From: Escherichia phage Ecwhy_1
Length of the DNA: 64,000 bases
Strand: one strand, 5' to 3'
Sequence record: MH791411.1
A program made the translations under genes and the position numbers. Positions 3,228-42,136 of this stretch are shown here, one piece after another. A model generated the notes under the pieces. It made no database searches. It worked only from the letters and a program-made list of their open reading frames with translations, and was not told the DNA's origin. Each line of letters opens with the position of its first letter. The stretch's first letter is position 1.

Positions 3228-3635
3228 TTATTCGCCCATATAGATTAGATTATCATCGCCTACATAGGGATCGCAAACGTTGATTTCTTCACAGTACTTC
3301 GTGAATACATCGCCATAGTGACCTAAACCACGATCCCAAAAACCAGTTCCGTGACCTTCGCGGGTAAGGAACAGATCATGACCAGCTTGCTCATAACCGT
3401 AATCAATAAACATACCGCGAACTACTTCCAGATCATTACCGTGTTTCTCAATGAAGCGAGAACATGCAATCACCGCCGCTTGACGTGCTTCATCAGATAA
3501 CTCATAATCTTCCAGGTAATCGCCGTTATCATTATGTACAGTACTGAATTGCATAGCTTCAATGTAAGCTACAACCATTGCAGCATGATTTTTATCGTTA
3601 GTGATGTTCCGAGCGAGATTAGTAGTAGTAGACAT
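3228..3635 (-). CDS. hypothetical protein (135 aa)
   Basis: ORF; SD AAGGAATAAAATC; promoter+hairpin upstream. Confidence 0.6.
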   Translation of the reverse strand: MSTTTNLARNITNDKNHAAMVVAYIEAMQFSTVHNDNGDYLEDYELSDEARQAAVIACSRFIEKHGNDLEVVRGMFIDYGYEQAGHDLFLTREGHGTGFWDRGLGHYGDVFTKYCEEINVCDPYVGDDNLIYMGE

Positions 3636-3718
3636 GATTTTATTCCTTATTGTATTGGGGAGAACTATTCTCCCCTTGATGTAAACTATTATACAGTACT
3701 GATATACTTTGTCAATAC

Positions 3719-3940
3719 TTAATTACGTTTAAAATGATATGTGCCTTTATCATCCTGTACGCCCCATACTGATTTACCATCAACACCAGTGAAGCCGGAT
3801 TGTAATTCAATATGGAAACCATTATTATCAACTACAAAAACTTTTTTATTTTCATCCCGATAACATTGATATTCTGAATCAACATTAAAGGCCGCATCAT
3901 TCAGACGATTGGAAGCGTAAATGCAAGTCATTGTAGTCAT
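3719..3940 (-). CDS. hypothetical protein (73 aa)
   Basis: Track ORF trimmed to MTTMTC start; promoter+hairpin upstream. Confidence 0.55.
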   Translation of the reverse strand: MTTMTCIYASNRLNDAAFNVDSEYQCYRDENKKVFVVDNNGFHIELQSGFTGVDGKSVWGVQDDKGTYHFKRN

Positions 3941-16039: not shown

Positions 16040-16148
16040 TTTCTTATTCCTTAGTTACCAGGGGAACCGCTCCCCCTATGCAAAACATTATACGCGTTTA
16101 AAAACTAATTGCAAGTATTTTAATAAAAAGTATTTGAAAAATAGTTGT

Positions 16149-16290
16149 TGACAAGTGCATCCAGTACTGGCATAATTACTACATCAAGACGAAACAGTCA
16201 CTAACCCACCGGGTGCCGAGATCCGTCTATTAAATGATTCAGTACTGAAAAAGTAACGGGGAGTTATTATCTCCCCGTGTTGTTATTTTG
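16149..16290 (+). ncRNA. candidate small RNA: + strand promoter plus about 100 nt ending at a bidirectional hairpin
   Basis: TTGACA (16149)-N17-CATAAT; leader ACATCAAGACGAAACAGTCACTAACCCACCGGGTGC; hairpin GGGGAG..CTCCCC at 16256-16278 + T-rich; no ORF. Confidence 0.35.
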
Positions 16291-16504
16291 TAAGGTATAA
16301 ACAGAAGTCGCCTTTATTTGCTACGCCGCCAGTGTAACGCGAGGAATAGTTAGAAACGTCCTGGACTTCTGCTATTACCAGGGTATCATCATTCAATTCG
16401 TCGCAGAAGCAAACGGCTGGATCTTGTACGCCGATTTTGTCGGCATGTTCCCGCATAGATTTAACCAGTGCTTCCAGTTGGGAAAGAGTAGTGATATTAG
16501 CCAT
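16283..16504 (-). CDS. hypothetical protein (73 aa)
   Basis: Trimmed to MANITT start; promoter+hairpin. Confidence 0.55.
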   Translation of the reverse strand: MANITTLSQLEALVKSMREHADKIGVQDPAVCFCDELNDDTLVIAEVQDVSNYSSRYTGGVANKGDFCLYLTK

Positions 16505-19671: not shown

Positions 19672-19764
19672 TTTTTTAATCCTCTTATATAGTGGGGAAC
19701 TATTCCCCACCTGATGTAAAACATTATACGCCATTAAACATAGTTTGCAAGTACTTTATTAAAC

Positions 19765-20127
19765 TTATTTGTAAATTTTGCCACTGTCAGCCCATACCAG
19801 GAAACGAGGCATATTATCCCATGCATCTTGTTTTAAGTTTAAGCCGTGCAATTCCTCAGTTGTTGCCATCCCTGGTACTGGCTTACTACACACCGCGAAA
19901 TTTTCGCCCATATACTGATAAACCATCGTCAAATCATTTGAGATCATTATATGGATCATTGAATCCAGCATCAAAGTAGCGGCGTATTGTTCACGCTTAA
20001 GCGGCAACATTGCAATAAGTTCCCGATAAGCTGCAATGTGAATTTTTACAGTTTCAGCCGGAAGACCTTTCATCTCATCGCGGAAGTTTACCAGGTTAAG
20101 CATGATTTTATTGATTTGAGTCGCCAT
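19765..20127 (-). CDS. hypothetical protein (120 aa)
   Basis: Trimmed to MATQINK start; promoter+hairpin. Confidence 0.6.
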   Translation of the reverse strand: MATQINKIMLNLVNFRDEMKGLPAETVKIHIAAYRELIAMLPLKREQYAATLMLDSMIHIMISNDLTMVYQYMGENFAVCSKPVPGMATTEELHGLNLKQDAWDNMPRFLVWADSGKIYK

Positions 20128-20242
20128 CGTTTTAATCTCTCTTAATGTGTAGCGGGAAGTGTTCCCGCTCTCGATGTAAAACATTATACGCTTTTATCAG
20201 TACGGTGCAAGTACTTTCTACAAATACTTTTAAAATAGTTTT

Positions 20243-20329
20243 CTTTCTATATAGGAGTACTATTATTCAGTACTGCAATCATCCAGGGGAACTATCTTTC
20301 TATATAGGAGTACTATTATTCAGTACTGA
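20243..20329. repeat. 34-bp direct repeat, two copies
   Basis: TCTTTCTATATAGGAGTACTATTATTCAGTACTG at about 20243 and 20296. Confidence 0.6.
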
Positions 20330-20490
20330 ATCAATCCACTAAATCATCCCTATACCCCGTAAAACGTCCTCAGACGCATTCTAACGCATTAATACACATA
20401 AGCTATACATTTGCACCATTCCAATCATTCCAGGGCTTTACAGGCCGTTTAAACGCGTTAAATTATTTTCAATTATTTTGTTTTTAGGTA

Positions 20491-20600
20491 TTGACTTGAT
20501 CCTGAAAAAGCGTATAATTACTACATAGACGCGAGAAAGCGGATACCCCAGGGGGTGGGAAGATCCGTCCAAAATTCAAGATATAAAAAAAGGATACACT
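20491..20600 (+). ncRNA. candidate + strand transcript in the non-coding region
   Basis: TTGACT-N16-TATAAT; leader with CCCCAGGGGGTGGG and GATCCGTCC. Confidence 0.3.
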
Positions 20601-20706
20601 CCCGCACCCTAGCAGGTAAACGCACTTTCTCAGTACTGAAATATAGTACCATAGTCCGGCCCAGGATAGCAAGCAAATTAATTAAAACTTTTTTGCTTCC
20701 AGGGTA

Positions 20707-20800
20707 TTGCTTTATTTTTCCAGTACTGTATAATAGTTCCATCAAGTCGAGAAAGACTCAAGCCCACCGGGTGCATAGTTACGCCCAAAATTCAGTACTG
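20707..20800 (+). ncRNA. candidate + strand transcript in the non-coding region
   Basis: TTGCTT..TGTATAAT (extended -10); leader CCATCAAGTCGAGAAAGACTCAAGCCCACCGGGTGC. Confidence 0.3.
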
Positions 20801-20954
20801 AAAAAATTTTTAAAAATATCCGGCCAGGCCGTTGACATTGCCCCCAGTTTATAAGATAATGATTCCAGATTCAGAAAAATCTAACACCAGATACTGCGGG
20901 GAAACTATCCCCACGCGGTAGGGGAACTATTGGAAAAAACAAAATAAAATTTTG

Positions 20955-21145
20955 ATTTAGCCGTCTATACTTCCAGACGTGTAACCATCTAGCCGTTTAG
21001 CCGTCCAAACGTCTAGCCATCCAGCCATCCAGAAATCTAGCCGTTTAGCCGTCTAGATGGATAGCCATCTTTACTTCCAGACTTCTGGAGGGCTAGACAT
21101 ATCTACGCCCAAAATCCATCCAGGGTAACTACGCCCAAAATCCGT
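20955..21145. repeat. iteron-like cluster of short direct and inverted repeats
   Basis: About 10 copies of TAGCCGT/TAGCCAT in about 120 bp; CTACGCCCAAAATCC twice; palindromes CCAGA..TCTGG, GATGG..CCATC. Confidence 0.5.
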
Positions 21146-22166
21146 CAGTACTATACCATAGATCTATCTTTTGAAAGGGAGTATTCAGTACTGCCATCAT
21201 AGCCCTCACTATGTTACCCTAGGAGGATGAAGACCATCATGTAGTACTGAATACTGTTAGAGGGAATCCACCAGCTTGTGCTGGTGGCATAATGCTTTAG
21301 ATTAAAATCAGTACTGACACCATTCTGTTAATATCAGTACTGTTATTACGATTTTCATATGAGGTTCAAAAAGATGTACCACCACAGGAGGAACTATCTT
21401 TTCTGTACTGTCTCACGACAGGAGGTAGAGTAAATGAATTGTTCGCAGCAACTCATCACCCTATGTAGAACATTATACAGTACTGAATCATAAAGTCAAT
21501 AACTTTCTTTCATCTTTCAGTACTGATATTCTTGAGAACTACCCGACTACAAACATCATTATATCCCACAAATCATAAACGTCCCAACGTAAATTTCAAC
21601 TTTCGAAGATCCAACTTTTATTTCATAGGTACTCCAAAATTTTTAGGATCGAGATTTAGGATGGAGTACTAACCAACTTTTTGCTGGAGCCTCAAGGGGT
21701 AATGGAATTTTACCCCGAAGGGTAAAGGGGTAATTGAAATTAAGGTGAAAGTAATAATTCAGTACTAATCATTGCGTGATTACTTTTGATTACATTTGAT
21801 GTAATTTGCAAAATGGAAAAGGAGCTTGGAAACTACAAAGTACGGCAGACTTCCTCTGCCTACTTAGTGGGATATCGCCACCTTCAGTACTGAATACTTT
21901 TAGGGCAGTACTGAATCCTTCCCTAGCATTCTTGAGTAATCTTGTCTATAATAATCAGTACTGAATCATATATAATCATTCTGTGATTCTACGGTGCTCA
22001 TATAAATGTTTATATATGATTACTTATGACTACATATGATTACGGGGTTTAGCCTGGGGAGAATCCTAGTGATCGCATTTGTCCAGGCTGAATTTTAACA
22101 ATTCTTCTAATTGTTAAAGCCTGTCCAATGCTTTCCCTGCGGAGCTTCCCCTGTCTATATGTTGAA

Positions 22167-22373
22167 TTACTTCCTATATATAAGCATTAACATATAGTAG
22201 TACTGATTATGCTGTACATTCTCTTTAATATTATAAGGGTCTATAGCAATCTCGGTACATCTGTTAAATGCATATCTATTAAATGCCAGTACTATTATAG
22301 ATCTAATCCATGCTTGGTCAGTCGGTGGTAGTTTACTTATATAGTACTCTTTATAGTTTTTTATGTTCTGCAT
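22167..22373 (-). CDS. small paralog family member (68 aa)
   Basis: Tandem family; N-terminal (K/E)EYY motif, hydrophobic C-terminus. Confidence 0.55.
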   Translation of the reverse strand: MQNIKNYKEYYISKLPPTDQAWIRSIIVLAFNRYAFNRCTEIAIDPYNIKENVQHNQYYYMLMLIYRK

Positions 22374-22384
22374 AGTATACCTTA

Positions 22385-22576
22385 TTATTTCAAAGTACCA
22401 TATAGTACTCTTAATAGGAAGTAGTACGTATTAGAGATATCATTAGTAGTTAAAACAATCTTTGTACACATATTAAATTCGTATTGAGTCATTGCCAGGG
22501 GGATTAAATTGTTAACCCATGCTTGTTCGTTTTCTTTTAGTTTACTTATATAGAAATCTTTATGTTCTTTATTCAT
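22385..22576 (-). CDS. small paralog family member (63 aa)
   Basis: Tandem family; MNKEHKDFY start. Confidence 0.55.
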   Translation of the reverse strand: MNKEHKDFYISKLKENEQAWVNNLIPLAMTQYEFNMCTKIVLTTNDISNTYYFLLRVLYGTLK

Positions 22577-36652: not shown

Positions 36653-37840
36653 ATGTTACCTTTTGCAAGAATGGTTAAGTACGGGAATAAAGTCATTCCA
36701 TATGTTCCCAATTTTACTAAATTAGTCACCCCAGCAGTTGGTTATTCATTTACATGCACAATGCTGCTTGATGTAAATGGATCAGTGTGGGCTATGGGTC
36801 TTCAGAATGCAGGAATTTTTGGGTTAGGTAATACTACACAGGTTACTGAATGGACAAAAATATATAACAATGTTAAAGATTTTTGGTGCAGCACGGGGAA
36901 TGGTTTTTGTCTAATACGAACAAATGATGATAGATTCTTTTATAGTGGTTTAGATAAATGGCTAGGTAACAATACAACAAATACTGTAACAACATTCACT
37001 GAATGTACGAGTTATTTTACACAATTTGGTATTTCAAAAATCAAAGAAATATATGTAGGTCTTGATTATGCTTTGATTTTAGGTACTGATAATAGTTTAT
37101 ATTTGTTAGGTGATAATAAAAATTCAAAGTTTGGTTTAAACACTGCATCATATTTTAATAAATTTACATTTTTAGTCGATAATGTTAAAAAATTCTGTTC
37201 ATCCATCACACCATCTAACTGGATTATTAAACTAGATAATACAATATGGCGTACTGGGACAACATCTCATGGAACGTTGGGAAATGGAGTTCAAAACACA
37301 TATATATTTCCTTGGGTTCAATATAAGGGCACACCTGTTACCGAAGCTATAGACGTTTTTTGTAGTGCGAGTTATATTGGTATTATAACTAAAGGTACAC
37401 CAGAATCATGTCCTATGTATACACTAGGCTATCAAGCTGATGGTCAGTTGGGTAATAATACTACAGCAGGGGGTTATAAATTAACGCCAACATTATCGAA
37501 AACCGTTCCAGATGATAGTGAATTCATTCGAATTGAAAACATCTCATCCCGTGGTCTGGTATATTATAGCTCTGGTAAAATTTATAGTACTGGTTATAAT
37601 AACAATGGTCAGTTGGCAAATAATACTAAAATCAATTCTGGTTCATTTGTTGAAGCAATTTTACCTAATGGTGTTAACTTTAAGAAAAGTGAATCACTTG
37701 TAGCTGGGAACGATGCAACGTTGTATATGTACATTAATAATAAATTATACTACGCGGGGAAATCTCCTGATAATATTTCAGCAAGTAGTTCGTCTGTCAT
37801 GAAAGAATTCCCACTTCCAACAATTAATGCCAGTACTTGA
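36653..37840 (+). CDS. RCC1-like repeat protein, paralog 9 (395 aa)
   Basis: MLPFARMVKYGN; SD AAAGGAGG. Confidence 0.75.
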   Translation: MLPFARMVKYGNKVIPYVPNFTKLVTPAVGYSFTCTMLLDVNGSVWAMGLQNAGIFGLGNTTQVTEWTKIYNNVKDFWCSTGNGFCLIRTNDDRFFYSGLDKWLGNNTTNTVTTFTECTSYFTQFGISKIKEIYVGLDYALILGTDNSLYLLGDNKNSKFGLNTASYFNKFTFLVDNVKKFCSSITPSNWIIKLDNTIWRTGTTSHGTLGNGVQNTYIFPWVQYKGTPVTEAIDVFCSASYIGIITKGTPESCPMYTLGYQADGQLGNNTTAGGYKLTPTLSKTVPDDSEFIRIENISSRGLVYYSSGKIYSTGYNNNGQLANNTKINSGSFVEAILPNGVNFKKSESLVAGNDATLYMYINNKLYYAGKSPDNISASSSSVMKEFPLPTINAST

Positions 37841-37892
37841 TACTGGCTTTTCTTTTTGTATTAAATATAGTATAATGAATAAAGGAGGGAAT

Positions 37893-39044
37893 ATGTTACC
37901 TTTTGCAAGAATGGTTAAGTACGGGAATATTGCACCAGTTCCTGTAGTTCCTACAATAAAAGATTTTAAGATTGGATTTTCACATGAAGTGTTATTGGAC
38001 AGTGCAGGTGATGTATGGGGTATTGGATACAATACAGATGGACAGTTGGGATTTCTGGATGCTAACACAAATTCAATAGGAATGTGGTCTAAGATACATG
38101 AGAATGTTAGATTAATTGGCGTTACTGCCAATTATACTGTAGTTGTTACAAATGATAATAGAATACTTTACGCCGGAAATAACTTAATTTCTAGTACTAC
38201 AACGCTTGGGTGGAACGATATAACGTCCAGTATGGGAGAGGTTGCAGTGGATAGTATAGATACATTATATTGCACAGATGGAATGATGCATATTAAAACT
38301 GCTGATGGCTCTTTATATGCATATGGACGTAATATGAACGCGAACGCTGGAGTTACAGGCGTTTCTGGCGTTATTAGTGTTGCAACTAAAGTTAGTGGTT
38401 TACCATCGGCAGTGAAGGATATACGATATACGTTTAGTTATGGTTCAGTACTATGCCAATTTGATACCACTTCGGTATATGGATGGGGAAGAAATGTCAA
38501 TGGTGAATTAGGTCAGGGGAATGCAGCCGCAGTTCCTGCCCCATACCTATTGGCGGGAGCTTCTATTGTTATAGGTACTTCTTATAATGCTACTGCCATT
38601 GTTTCTGGTACTGGAACGTTAGTTACATGTGGTGGACAAAATAATGGTCAGTTAGGTAATGGTATTACTACTGCTGGTAATGTATACATATATGGTGCTA
38701 GGTCATACCCTGGCGATCTTAATAATATAAGAAGTCCAGTAGATTGTAGTACAACTTATACTTCCGCATTTATGAGTACAGATGGTATATATTACACGGG
38801 TTCGAACCGAAGTGTTTTTGGTGGTGCGAGTGGTTCTGCTACTGTTGCATTATATACTAAATGTAGTGATTTGCCAATATTATATTCCAATATAACTCAG
38901 TGGGGTAGTGGTACTATTGGTGGGGCGATATGTAGCAGAACTGAATTATATCAGTGTGGTACAGGTAGATACATTGCCGGAGATGGACAGAACGCAACTA
39001 GGTATGGGTTTAGAAAGACACCATTACCTTGGGATGTTTATTGA
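37893..39044 (+). CDS. RCC1-like repeat protein, paralog 10 (383 aa)
   Basis: MLPFARMVKYGN; SD AAAGGAGGG. Confidence 0.75.
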   Translation: MLPFARMVKYGNIAPVPVVPTIKDFKIGFSHEVLLDSAGDVWGIGYNTDGQLGFLDANTNSIGMWSKIHENVRLIGVTANYTVVVTNDNRILYAGNNLISSTTTLGWNDITSSMGEVAVDSIDTLYCTDGMMHIKTADGSLYAYGRNMNANAGVTGVSGVISVATKVSGLPSAVKDIRYTFSYGSVLCQFDTTSVYGWGRNVNGELGQGNAAAVPAPYLLAGASIVIGTSYNATAIVSGTGTLVTCGGQNNGQLGNGITTAGNVYIYGARSYPGDLNNIRSPVDCSTTYTSAFMSTDGIYYTGSNRSVFGGASGSATVALYTKCSDLPILYSNITQWGSGTIGGAICSRTELYQCGTGRYIAGDGQNATRYGFRKTPLPWDVY

Positions 39045-39114
39045 AATAATGCCAGTACTCTGTACTGGCTTTTCTTTTTGATTAAATATAGTATAAAGAA
39101 TAAAGGAGGGAATT

Positions 39115-40251
39115 ATGTTACCTTTTGCAAGAATGGTTAAGTACGGGAATATAAAAGTAAAGAGTACTATACAAAAAGTTATACTTGGTGGTGGTGGTCA
39201 ATGTGTGGTAACATTACTCAGTGATGGTAGAGTGTATGGACGTGGTTACAACACTACACATGGGTTAGGTACTGGTACAACAACATTCGTAAGTGATTGG
39301 GTATTAATGGGAGATAATATTGTTGATATCCATTCAAATGGTGTTACTGGAACATTCCTTATTACCAAAGAAAATAGAATATTGTATTCTGGTTTTGCGA
39401 CACCAATCAATGGCACAACATCACATTATACACGTTTCACTGATTTAACATCAACTGTATTTGCTGCGGTGGATGTTAGTAATATTAAAACAATTACGGG
39501 AAATGGTAATGTTACAATGGTTCTTTTGAATGATGGTTCACTTTATGGGAGTGGTGCAAATATAGGGGTTATAGGTAATGGTAGTAACGTTGCATTATCA
39601 ACACAAACATATGTGACTAATGATGTGCGTGATGTGAAAACATATCCATCAATGAACACTATAACAAAAAATAATAATCAAATATTGGCTAGTGGTATTT
39701 TATACCAAGGCGTGAACGGTACAAATTCATCAATAAACACGTCTTCATATACATTACTGTACACATTACCGAGTTCTGATTGTTTTCAATTTGCATTTGA
39801 TACATATACATTTGGATATGTTGACCCTAGTACTAACACTTCTTATATAAGAGGTATACCAATAAATGGTTCATTAGGTAATGGCGTTACTAATAATACA
39901 GCAGTTACAACATGGGTTACTAAAGTTTGGAATACACCAATTGATAGTTCTATACCTAATAAATCATATACAACTAACCATGTCTCCTTGTTCAATGATG
40001 GAAACTTATGGACAACTGGTGCATCTAGTGTAGGTTATTCCAATGGTACAAATAGCACAACAGCTAATACATGGACCAGTTCATCTAATTTACCATTCAA
40101 CACTAATAACATAACAGACTATGCTTTTGGTGGTAGTATTACTGTAGTGGTAATCGACTACAGGACTATGTACATACTAGCTAACAACGCCATTGCTGGT
40201 ACTGCTACGACAACTTATAAATTTGAGCCATATAATTCTCCACCAGTTTAA
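39115..40251 (+). CDS. RCC1-like repeat protein, paralog 11 (378 aa)
   Basis: MLPFARMVKYGN; SD AAAGGAGGG; -10 variant TATAAAG. Confidence 0.75.
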   Translation: MLPFARMVKYGNIKVKSTIQKVILGGGGQCVVTLLSDGRVYGRGYNTTHGLGTGTTTFVSDWVLMGDNIVDIHSNGVTGTFLITKENRILYSGFATPINGTTSHYTRFTDLTSTVFAAVDVSNIKTITGNGNVTMVLLNDGSLYGSGANIGVIGNGSNVALSTQTYVTNDVRDVKTYPSMNTITKNNNQILASGILYQGVNGTNSSINTSSYTLLYTLPSSDCFQFAFDTYTFGYVDPSTNTSYIRGIPINGSLGNGVTNNTAVTTWVTKVWNTPIDSSIPNKSYTTNHVSLFNDGNLWTTGASSVGYSNGTNSTTANTWTSSSNLPFNTNNITDYAFGGSITVVVIDYRTMYILANNAIAGTATTTYKFEPYNSPPV

Positions 40252-40283
40252 TATAATGCCAGTACTATGTACTGGCTTTTCTT

Positions 40284-40934
40284 TTACATATTATATAATG
40301 TGAATGCAGTCACTTTACCAGTTGTTGTTAGTTCATTATAAAGATACTCCAAGATTCTCGCACACTCTAAGTATATCTCGATATCATCATGAATAAGTGA
40401 GTACTGAAATAGCTGTTCTTCAGGTAATTTGTATTGACTTCCTTTTAATGAATTGAGAATATCTTTCACATCATCAAGTACTGGGTAAAGTACGAAATCT
40501 TCATCATATTTTGAAGCAATAAATTCAAATCCACCACCATCAGTACTAGATATACCAATCAGTACTTTATCAATCAAGTTAATGTTTATATAACGGTTGT
40601 GATTTGGGTGAATTGAAATCTCAAACATAAGAGTACTGTTACAATCAACATCAATATACAAATATACATCATTGAATTTATAAGTTAAGCAACCGTACTC
40701 AAGAAAATCAGAGCAAATAATTGATGAGTTTTTTCTCGTCTCTGCGTAATGCATCTTGATATTCTTTTCACGCATAAGTAATTCGAACTTTGCACTAAAC
40801 TTGCCACCAGCAAGATAGTTAGTATTAGGACGTTTGTAACTTGCAACTGGTCGGTGGGATGATGTAAAGTATTTTTTTGTGAATCGTTTATGTTTAGTGA
40901 AATATTCTTGATAGAACTTACTTCTTTTATTCAT
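40284..40934 (-). CDS. hypothetical protein (216 aa), opposite strand inside the RCC1-like array
   Basis: ORF; convergent with paralog 11 and sharing its terminator hairpin. Confidence 0.6.
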   Translation of the reverse strand: MNKRSKFYQEYFTKHKRFTKKYFTSSHRPVASYKRPNTNYLAGGKFSAKFELLMREKNIKMHYAETRKNSSIICSDFLEYGCLTYKFNDVYLYIDVDCNSTLMFEISIHPNHNRYININLIDKVLIGISSTDGGGFEFIASKYDEDFVLYPVLDDVKDILNSLKGSQYKLPEEQLFQYSLIHDDIEIYLECARILEYLYNELTTTGKVTAFTLYNM

Positions 40935-41011
40935 GAGTACCTCAATTAAATCGCTGTAAAATTGTACATTATAAAATGATTAAATAAAGTATAACACAAG
41001 GAGATTTTATC

Positions 41012-42136
41012 ATGTTACCTTTCGTATTGTTATTTGATTATGGGAACGAAAAACAAGAAAGTTCTTATGATGTTAGTGTATATGGAAACAATAACTACAT
41101 TTTAAATAAACAAACTGGAAACCTTTTTGCATCCGGTGCTGCGGCATTCATGGGTGATAACACAGTTAAGTATTATATTACCCAAATAGAATCAAATGTT
41201 CATAGCTGTGAGATAGGTTTCCTATCATCATGGATAATTAAGAAGGACAAAACTGTTTTCATTTTAGGAAACAAAAGCAGTATAGGATTAACTGGTTCGA
41301 CAACATCATGGTTCGAAATTACAAATTTATTTTCTGCTGTTCCTGAAATATGGGACAACCTATTTGAATGTAAAGTTCAATTGGGATATAACTGTATACG
41401 TGTTATGACACCACTAGGATCAATCTATGCGATTGGTACAAACACTTATGGTGCATTGGGTACTGGTACTACATCCTCATCAACTTCGTTCGTTAAAAGT
41501 GGTGCTGTGGATGCTGTACGCATGGAATCAACAGAACGTTCAGTGTTCTATCAAAACAGTTCTGGACAATGGTTTGGATGTGGTGATAACACATATGGTA
41601 TACTAGGTCTAGGAACTACCGCGAGTCGTGTAAACTCATACACCGCACCAGTATGGACTAATGCAGAAGCTGTTAGCTTCTCTAACCGTGGGATCATATA
41701 CAGCCTCAATGGTACTCTATACTCATGTGGTGACAAAGTTAATGGTCAGCTAGGGGATGGATATACACAAAGCATAGACGCTGCCAGGAGCACACCATAC
41801 ACCATAGGAACCGCATTCCAAATTGGTAAGGCAATAACATCAGCTACACAAGCATCAGCCAACGTATTCATTGGTAAAGATAATAAGTTCTATGGTACTG
41901 GTAGTATTGCTGCTGGTATAAATGGTAGTGCTAGTGCTGCATTAAGTAAAGTTACTGCGTTATCAGCATCACTACCACCTGACATTACATACAATGATAT
42001 TATAACATTTAATACAGGGACCGTAACTTTTATTCAAGCAAAAGGACAACTATATTATGTTGGTAGAAGAACTTACATAGATAATAGTTCAGACGTTACC
42101 ACACAGTTCAGTGTAATTGGTGGCTTAGATAATTAA
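41012..42136 (+). CDS. RCC1-like repeat protein, divergent paralog 12 (374 aa)
   Basis: MLPFVLLFDYGN; blocks GTNTYGALGTG, GDNTYGILGLG, VNGQLGDGY; SD AAGGAG. Confidence 0.7.
   Translation: MLPFVLLFDYGNEKQESSYDVSVYGNNNYILNKQTGNLFASGAAAFMGDNTVKYYITQIESNVHSCEIGFLSSWIIKKDKTVFILGNKSSIGLTGSTTSWFEITNLFSAVPEIWDNLFECKVQLGYNCIRVMTPLGSIYAIGTNTYGALGTGTTSSSTSFVKSGAVDAVRMESTERSVFYQNSSGQWFGCGDNTYGILGLGTTASRVNSYTAPVWTNAEAVSFSNRGIIYSLNGTLYSCGDKVNGQLGDGYTQSIDAARSTPYTIGTAFQIGKAITSATQASANVFIGKDNKFYGTGSIAAGINGSASAALSKVTALSASLPPDITYNDIITFNTGTVTFIQAKGQLYYVGRRTYIDNSSDVTTQFSVIGGLDN

Follow-up and report, generated by a model that had tools for sequence, protein, structure and literature searches.

Clustered auxiliary operators of repressors are known from the OR and OL triplets of phage lambda, from O1-O3 of lac, and from the dispersed C1 operators of phage P1. 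Repeated sites of another kind make up sopC of F, where each 43-bp unit carries a short inverted repeat, and pac of P1, which contains clusters of a hexamer. The locus described here lies in Escherichia phage Ecwhy_1 (record MH791411.1), of which one stretch of 64,000 nt, called the window below, was analysed as a whole. It is a short tandem array in which the palindrome AGTACT recurs, placed beside the first early promoter of the genome. It resembles the lambda, lac, and P1 operators in that short symmetric sites lie near and over sigma-70 promoters, several sites stand upstream of the site in the core promoter, and one motif is found at many promoters of a single phage. However, the phage array differs from these classical operators in its core of 6-8 bp, in a motif that occurs at ~10x chance even in coding DNA, and in a polymorphic number of sites. 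With iteron-like and centromere-like arrays it has in common the direct repeats of tens of base pairs with a palindrome in each, the variable copy number, and the place near an end or a cis site, but its palindrome also occurs outside the array, the units number only two here, and no link to a partition, initiator, or terminase function was found.

Two further systems invite comparison. As in the PeSL (promoter-early stem-loop) cassettes of T4-type phages (PMC2839356, PMC4122927), the window contains ~30 cassettes made of a promoter and a G+C hairpin that precede small early ORFs in a variable region. In the phage cassettes the hairpin follows the -10 box, within the leader, an order that is stated here for these cassettes alone. 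The differences are that the AGTACT addition is specific to the Rak2-like genera and that the 34-bp repeat is not itself such a cassette (cassette-profile E = 46 and 83 for its best alignments). The second system is the E. coli SlmA-binding site, GTGAGTACTCAC, in each half of which SlmA requires G1, T2, a purine at position 3, A4, and G5 (PMC3020112). It has the same central AGTACT palindrome, and SlmA is a dimeric helix-turn-helix protein whose sites are scattered as a mark of the chromosome. Yet at positions 1-3 the preference of the phage sites is for T, T, and C, and GAGTACTC is found in 0 of the 286 sites of the window. The phage sites were thus rejected as SlmA-binding sites; full-type sites are not enriched either, as allowing up to 2 mismatches gave 2 of them where 2.2 are expected.

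Structure of the repeat

The 34-mer TCTTTCTATATAGGAGTACTATTATTCAGTACTG occurs in two exact copies on the + strand of the window, at 20242-20275 and 20295-20328, which correspond to -66 to -99 and -119 to -152 from the inferred transcription start of g01. An earlier note, made by a model from the letters of this DNA, had described a perfect 34-bp direct repeat at the edge of a non-coding region, its copies about 53 bp apart and each with two AGTACT hexamers. All of this is borne out, with the coordinates lying 1 nt to the left of the 20243-20329 given there. The hexamers stand at 20256-20261 and 20269-20274 in the first copy and at 20309-20314 and 20322-20327 in the second, the distance from copy start to copy start is exactly 53 bp, and a long non-coding stretch extends over ~20128-22160, the repeat occupying its edge, with the promoter of the last gene of the minus strand on one side and a leader of ~1.7 kb on the other. 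Within the window there is no further copy of TCTTTCTATATAGGAGTACTATTATTCAGTACTG at up to 3 mismatches, and none arose in 100 dinucleotide-preserving shuffles.

The 34-mer forms the core of a larger tandem unit of 53 bp in which a 13-bp module is nested, and neither of these appears in the earlier note. Similarity between the copies continues to 44 nt at 91%, and the two 53-bp units together form an array at 20242-20347 in which unit 2 diverges past 44 nt. Each unit reads TCTTTCTATATAGG, AGTACT, ATTATTC, AGTACT, G, and a 19-nt linker with GGGGAACTA at its end. The second of the four AGTACT sites has the form CAGTACTG and lies within the 13-bp module ATTATTCAGTACT, for which the general form is AT(T/C)ATTCAGTACT, while the fourth, at the end of copy 2, is inside a perfect 14-bp palindrome, ATTCAGTACTGAAT (20318-20331). 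The 53-bp period is missing from the Tandem Repeats Finder list, probably owing to the presence of only ~1.8 copies. Folding of the repeat region gave nothing special (z = -1.2), and a hairpin or cruciform at the repeat was rejected on this result. A third palindrome of the unit, CTATATAG, was also rejected as an enriched motif, as 2 of its 3 sites in the window belong to the repeat itself. Searches of the whole window against Rfam and with ARAGORN gave no RNA family and no tRNA. The short motif GGGGAACTAT or its complement recurs at 20288-20297, 19694-19708, 20900-20935, and 21390-21401; it builds leader hairpins (GGGGAACTATTCCCC), closes the linker of the 53-bp unit, and stands for the first AGTACT of the unit in some isolates. 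GGGAACTAT is found 5 times on the + strand and 0 times on the - strand.

Copy number among related phages

The 53-bp unit was found in 33 Asteriusvirus records only, at this locus only, with 1-3 copies in each copy of the terminal repeat; elsewhere in the genomes of these relatives there is none, the array standing once per terminal-repeat copy. Two checks had been proposed in the earlier note, a search of the rest of the genome for further copies and a comparison of copy number among isolates. The search returned no further copy, the AGTACT core alone occurring genome-wide, and the comparison revealed copy-number variation, isolates having 1, 2, or 3 units. IMG/VR contains no exact copy of the repeat, and 5,426 E. 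coli genomes gave no match to it.

Across 11 genomes the locus holds 2-7 AGTACT sites, with spacings that are nearly always 13 and 40 bp. The smallest number is that of ph0011, with 2 sites in 1 unit. Three sites are present in A4, which has 1 unit and is rearranged, and in CMSTMSU, which has 2 units, the second degenerate. The window, fEgEco12, PBECO4, and vB_Ec-M-J have 4 sites each in 2 units, and the rearranged locus of 121Q also has 4. Five sites were counted in slurp01 (3 units) and in SHEFM2K (2 units, rearranged, with four sites consecutive at 13 bp), and 7 in JNE01, where 2 of the 3 units are 66 bp long. One unit is also the state of EJP2, UB, and Sharanji, whereas slurp01 and JNE01 are the genomes with 3 and most others have 2. 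The inner 13-bp module varies as well, from 1 to 3 among isolates. In all canonical units examined, the second site of the unit (TTCAGTACT) is intact, while 3-4 isolates, including slurp01, JNE01, and vB_Ec-M-J, have GGGGAACT in place of the first AGTACT of their first unit, and the linker and outer flanks of the 53-bp unit are variable. The units are arranged head to tail and their number differs at a single locus, which leaves hardly any doubt that the repeat is a tandem, copy-number-polymorphic structure. Such a polymorphic tandem duplication is a feature of a known kind and ordinary in itself, and the array can be used as a typing marker for Asteriusvirus isolates.

Position in the terminal repeat and the leader

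The 4 kb around the repeat are 99.1% identical to Escherichia phage fEgEco12 and have matches in 163 phage records; by this similarity, the window belongs to an Asteriusvirus jumbo coliphage of the PBECO4/121Q group. The distance of the locus from the left end is 1.4-1.8 kb in the records of fEgEco12, vB_Ec-M-J, CRJP21, BF17, E9.1, and BAU.Micro_ELP-22. The repeat is inside a direct terminal repeat (DTR) of ~21 kb, which the vB_Ec-M-J record annotates as 1-21525 and which in a relative, Sharanji, was determined as 20,668 bp by PhageTerm (PMC11895373). The physical left end and DTR boundary were placed at 21864 of the window, where position 1 of both fEgEco12 and vB_Ec-M-J maps; the genome end is thus taken from the deposited records of these two relatives, to which the window runs in reverse. 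The repeat copies are 1,536-1,622 bp from this end. Because the repeat is present in both DTR copies, it occurs in 4 places in fEgEco12.

The non-coding leader (~20128-21864) has an architecture that is conserved across genera, its blocks being collinear with 2.4-4.3 kb of GAP32 and with 1-1800 of CBB, the record of which begins at the terminal repeat. From the end inwards, the order is a short block at 21621-21657 (89% identity to GAP32), an AGTACT-rich zone, an 8-bp-periodic array, promoter-plus-hairpin units, and the first early promoter. No other non-coding element of the leader is as conserved as the 8-bp-periodic array, which extends over 20958-21056 according to Tandem Repeats Finder and over 20890-21172 by homology, with ~12 copies such as TAGCCGTC and TAGCCATC; it matches GAP32 3396-3651 with 68% identity over 187 nt (E = 5e-21), and the CBB copy is at ~650-800. 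Judged by this alignment of leaders, the 34-bp array is an extra element specific to Asteriusvirus between the promoter-plus-hairpin units and the first early promoter.

Several other elements were observed in and around the leader. Small units that run counter to the genes, on the + strand, are located at 20485-20625, 20700-20815, and 16130-16300, and a weaker one at 20826-20945. In each, a conserved segment of ~60 nt (CGAGAAAG...CCCACCGGGTG...CCAAAATTCAGTACTG) follows a sigma-70-like promoter of good quality, such as TTGACT-16-TATAAT at 20491-20518. A terminator-like hairpin closes the unit at 16130. Sequence related to the units is found in GAP32 at 3659-3889. None of these units has an Rfam match; they may be small RNAs. 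At the genome end, a G+C hairpin, GGCAGAGGAAGTCTGCC (minus strand), is 4 nt inside the end (window 21844-21864), three CAGTACTG sites at 21885, 21906, and 21956 flank the boundary, and so do 10-bp repeats of ATGATTACAT at 21777-21800 and 22006-22043. The GC skew of the + strand changes from ~-0.1 to ~+0.2 near the terminal-repeat boundary (~22000-22400), with ORFs on the minus strand on both sides. Further into the window, the + strand has at 27968-42133 an uninterrupted run of eleven paralogous genes whose products, of ~360-410 aa, contain RCC1-like beta-propeller repeats (PF25390, best E = 1e-30; phrog_4219). Pfam matches in 42100-64000 and in the terminal repeat include a ParE-like toxin domain, a DksA/TraR C4 zinc finger, a GNAT acetyltransferase, a pyrimidine-dimer glycosylase (DenV), a CapR domain, a STAND/AAA NTPase, and two DUF7249 proteins.

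The first early promoter

On the minus strand, between ~800 and 21,500, small ORFs of the terminal repeat are headed by early-promoter cassettes, ~30 in all and nearly identical to one another. In its typical form, a cassette consists of AAAGTACTTGCAA (or TTGACA) and, after a spacer that often ends in (C/T)AGTACTG, of TATAAT and GTTTTACATC, followed by a G+C hairpin, a Shine-Dalgarno sequence, and the ATG; a UP-like stretch lies ahead of the -35 box. The cassette backbone, including the hairpin GCGGGAACACTTCCCGC, is common to unrelated phages of ~150 kb such as ESCO13, at ~77% identity. The promoters were inferred from sequence only, with the transcription start of g01 taken as ~20176. The cassette of g01 (20140-20224, minus strand) was recovered by nhmmer at E = 1.6e-17 with a profile built without it, and the inferred sigma-70-type early promoter in it (20183-20215, minus strand) is a member of the 30-cassette family. 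In this promoter, an AGTACT site (20210-20215) overlaps the predicted -35 box TTGCAC (20205-20210), which is separated by a 16-nt spacer from the -10 box TATAAT (20183-20188). The promoter is absent from the consensus scan because its -35 box matches the consensus at only 3/6 positions. Between the array and the -35 box is an A/T-rich, UP-like stretch, AAACTATTTTAAAAGTATTTGTAGAA (20216-20241, minus strand), which is also found upstream of cassette c11269; UP-like elements have been reported for this phage group (PMC5259590). Downstream, the leader hairpin GCGGGAACACTTCCCGC is at 20152-20168 (minus strand). The repeat array is directly upstream of the first early promoter, at -66 to -152.

The gene served by this promoter, g01, is the first gene of the genome (19765-20127, minus strand). 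It encodes 120 aa with the start MATQINK, corresponds to a 363-nt CDS in relatives, and belongs to phrog_7352, a family of unknown function. In fEgEco12 (PP777464.1) a 139-aa ORF is annotated with its start at 20184, which would begin inside the -10 box. We take the ATG at 20127 as the start codon because the cassette fits it and most records of relatives are annotated likewise. The candidate role of g01 as an autoregulated DNA-binding protein was rejected, since no such domain was found and its family is phrog_7352.

The AGTACT motif

AGTACT is by far the most over-represented palindromic hexamer of the window, with 286 sites observed against 21.6 expected (13x), an excess that the earlier note does not mention, and the longer form CAGTACTG is over-represented 75x (68 against 0.9). 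Per kb, coding DNA has 3.5 sites and intergenic DNA 9.9, a split that depends on crude ORF calls, where 0.34 would be expected. Because the coding sites fall in all three codon phases (81, 40, and 68), the excess is not a codon effect. The sites have symmetric flanks with preferred C/G, and T, T, and C are favoured at positions 1-3. The repeat locus is the densest AGTACT cluster of the window, with 4 sites per 100 bp against at most 3 elsewhere.

Counts beyond the window refer to samples of 20-50 kb of each genome. In these, AGTACT was in excess in Klebsiella phage RaK2 (7x, first 50 kb), in Cronobacter phage GAP32 (15x), and in the terminal repeat of Pectobacterium phage CBB (19.8x), and it was not enriched in the more distant Pseudomonas phage PA5oct (2 against 6.8 expected) or in the unrelated coliphage ESCO13 (2 against 6.3), the ratio being ~0.3x in both. 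A single 50-kb sample of E. coli K-12 had 3 sites against 11.6 expected, i.e., the motif is depleted there, and its frequency is ~1 per 220 bp in the phage as compared with ~1 per 17 kb in the host sample. Sequence comparison with phAPEC6 (85% identity) revealed that AGTACT was retained at 40 of 50 aligned sites, or 80%, as opposed to 51% for hexamers of the same composition and 47% for all hexamers (p = 3.7e-5). AGTACT sites are thus under purifying selection.

The motif also has fixed places in the promoters. At least one site is present in 28 of 30 cassettes, and the site centres are at -36 (19), -16 (11), and -26 (4), abutting the -35 and -10 hexamers. These centres are in exact 10-bp steps, which puts the sites on the same side of the helix. 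The cassette of ESCO13 has AAAGCATTGACA at the position of the Rak2-like AAAGTACTTGCA, with backbone and hairpin otherwise common to both. Since this cassette does without the site, AGTACT is a clade-specific addition that is dispensable for the host polymerase. In the published descriptions of promoters in this phage group, which report RpoD-like promoters with UP-like elements and two other motifs, AGTACT is absent (PMC5259590, PMC7318152), and the literature we searched holds no description of AGTACT or CAGTACTG in these phages. A symmetric site far above chance, at fixed promoter positions, is what an operator array should have, and AGTACT is very probably a selected recognition motif.

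Discussion

The earlier note had suggested that the repeat may be a duplicated regulatory site. The duplication stands, the units being head to tail and numbering 1-3, and the regulatory part of the suggestion is plausible. The reading that we prefer is that an array made by slippage is a multi-site platform for a dimeric, AGTACT-specific protein at early promoters, and for this statement as a whole we see the chances as evenly balanced. On this reading, replication slippage or unequal recombination would expand and contract the array at the levels of 53 bp and 13 bp, and a dimeric DNA-binding protein would recognise AGTACT, best in the form CAGTACTG and in extended form as ATTCAGTACTGAAT; a dimer is proposed because the palindrome is symmetric and has preferred C/G flanks. 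The putative protein would also occupy the promoter sites at -36, -26, and -16 in competition with RNA polymerase, and exclusion of the polymerase from early promoters would probably lead to early-gene shut-off. The array would then act as an auxiliary operator cluster that strengthens or nucleates occupancy at the leftmost promoter, and slippage would alter the number of binding sites at the g01 promoter. Binding of AGTACT by a protein, repression by this binding, and a contribution of the upstream array are the most likely interpretation of the patterns described above. For a regulatory effect of the array at the g01 promoter taken by itself, our confidence falls slightly short of even. Pfam and PHROGs gave no DNA-binding domain among the 110 ORFs of the 64-kb window, the rest of the genome being another ~290 kb.

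Several observations speak against a role of the array. Isolates tolerate 2-7 sites, and site 1 is sometimes GGGGAACT, which indicates that no particular number of sites is required. Where intergenic DNA has ~1 site per 100 bp, 4 are only modestly out of the ordinary, and it is the duplication itself that produced them. The dense AGTACT clusters of GAP32 and CBB are in other parts of the leader, away from the first promoter. The distances of the array sites to the -36 site (46, 59, 99, and 112 bp) also follow no simple pattern of helical phasing. The tolerated range of sites, the modest density, and the location of the GAP32 and CBB clusters make neutral duplication of functional sites the main rival. 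Under this explanation, the array is a minisatellite, a by-product of slippage between short motifs (GGGGAACTAT, ATTCAGTACT), the extra copies of which are inert even if the motif is functional elsewhere. The numbers of units (1, 2, or 3) and inner modules (1-3), the rearrangements in 121Q, A4, and SHEFM2K, the many short direct repeats in the flanks, the ordinary folding (z = -1.2), and an array position that is not kept in GAP32 or CBB all fit with it. Nevertheless, the cluster was lost in 0 of 11 genomes, with a minimum of 2 sites, the core of the distal site is intact in every canonical unit while linker and flanks vary, and AGTACT sites in general are under purifying selection; we consider neutrality somewhat unlikely. 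A different function, in packaging (terminase recognition), DNA entry, replication initiation, or genome positioning rather than in transcription, is suggested by the location of the array 1.5-1.6 kb from the physical end, in a 1.7-kb leader whose block order is kept in GAP32 and CBB, and by direct repeats that each carry a short palindrome, as iterons and partition sites do. However, the leader parts that are conserved across genera are the 8-bp array and the promoter-plus-hairpin units instead of the 34-bp array, a motif that occurs every ~220 bp cannot alone mark a unique site, and no A/T-rich unwinding element and no replication or partition gene was recognised nearby, where most genes have no assigned function. 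Nothing observed is specific to such a role at the genome end, and we consider it highly unlikely.

It could also be imagined that each unit is a weak or phage-specific promoter directed towards g01, made tandem by duplication. On the minus strand, CAGTACTG-AATAAT resembles the CAGTACTG-TATAAT of the cassettes, and CAGTACTGAATAATAG aligns in register with the end of the cassette spacer and the -10 box. Against this, a consensus scan of both strands of 20242-20347 found no sigma-70 promoter site, the units have A instead of T at -12 and no acceptable -35 box at 16-18 nt, and they lack the TGAAACG and ATAAATA motifs reported for CBB and GAP32 (PMC5259590). The alignment of the repeat with the cassette profile is not significant, as it gave E = 46 and 83 over 17-19 nt where true cassettes gave 1e-17 to 1e-20, and we consider extra promoters extremely improbable. 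For the same reason the idea that the 53-bp unit is a decayed cassette was rejected: by eye the two seemed 70% similar over 43 nt, but a profile of 28 cassettes aligns only CAGTACTGAATAATAG. The chance that the repeat is an artefact of assembly, or coding sequence, is practically nil. An artefact, which the earlier note had named as the finding that would undo its claim, is ruled out by the same array in many independent assemblies; the two-unit form was obtained by different laboratories, and both copies together measure 87 bp and fit inside one short read. A 65-aa ORF (20145-20342, + strand) does cross the repeat, and short ORFs are annotated over the region in JNE01 and SHEFM2K, but these annotations are inconsistent, the ORF is antisense to the g01 promoter and leader, and length changes of 53 bp, which is not a multiple of 3, and of 13 bp shift the frame between alleles, so that the reading frame is not kept. 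A structured RNA is opposed by the lack of any Rfam family or tRNA there.

The multi-site platform for a dimeric AGTACT-specific protein remains our preferred explanation. A wider speculation, which we regard as quite unlikely, is that AGTACT is a genome-wide mark of "self" in the enterobacterial Rak2-like jumbo phages, read by a dimeric phage protein, possibly virion-borne, or by a modification enzyme. Such a factor would coat, organise, or protect the phage DNA or tell it from that of the host, and would silence sigma-70 early promoters, with the array as a high-avidity site of nucleation or loading on the terminal repeat.

The genome-wide AGTACT motif appears to be new to the literature that we searched and appears to be of higher potential interest than the repeat through which it was noticed. 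It is 7-20x over chance in three genera of 350-kb phages, is under purifying selection within genes, and is nearly absent from host DNA. A candidate for the protein that reads it should have the same distribution as the motif excess, so that Asteriusvirus, Alcyoneusvirus, and Mimasvirus should encode it but PA5oct and ESCO13 should not, and digestion with ScaI offers a one-step test for modification of AGTACT. These observations point to a sequence-specific factor that is probably central to the control of genes or the handling of the genome in a group of phages that is little understood and is being developed for therapy.
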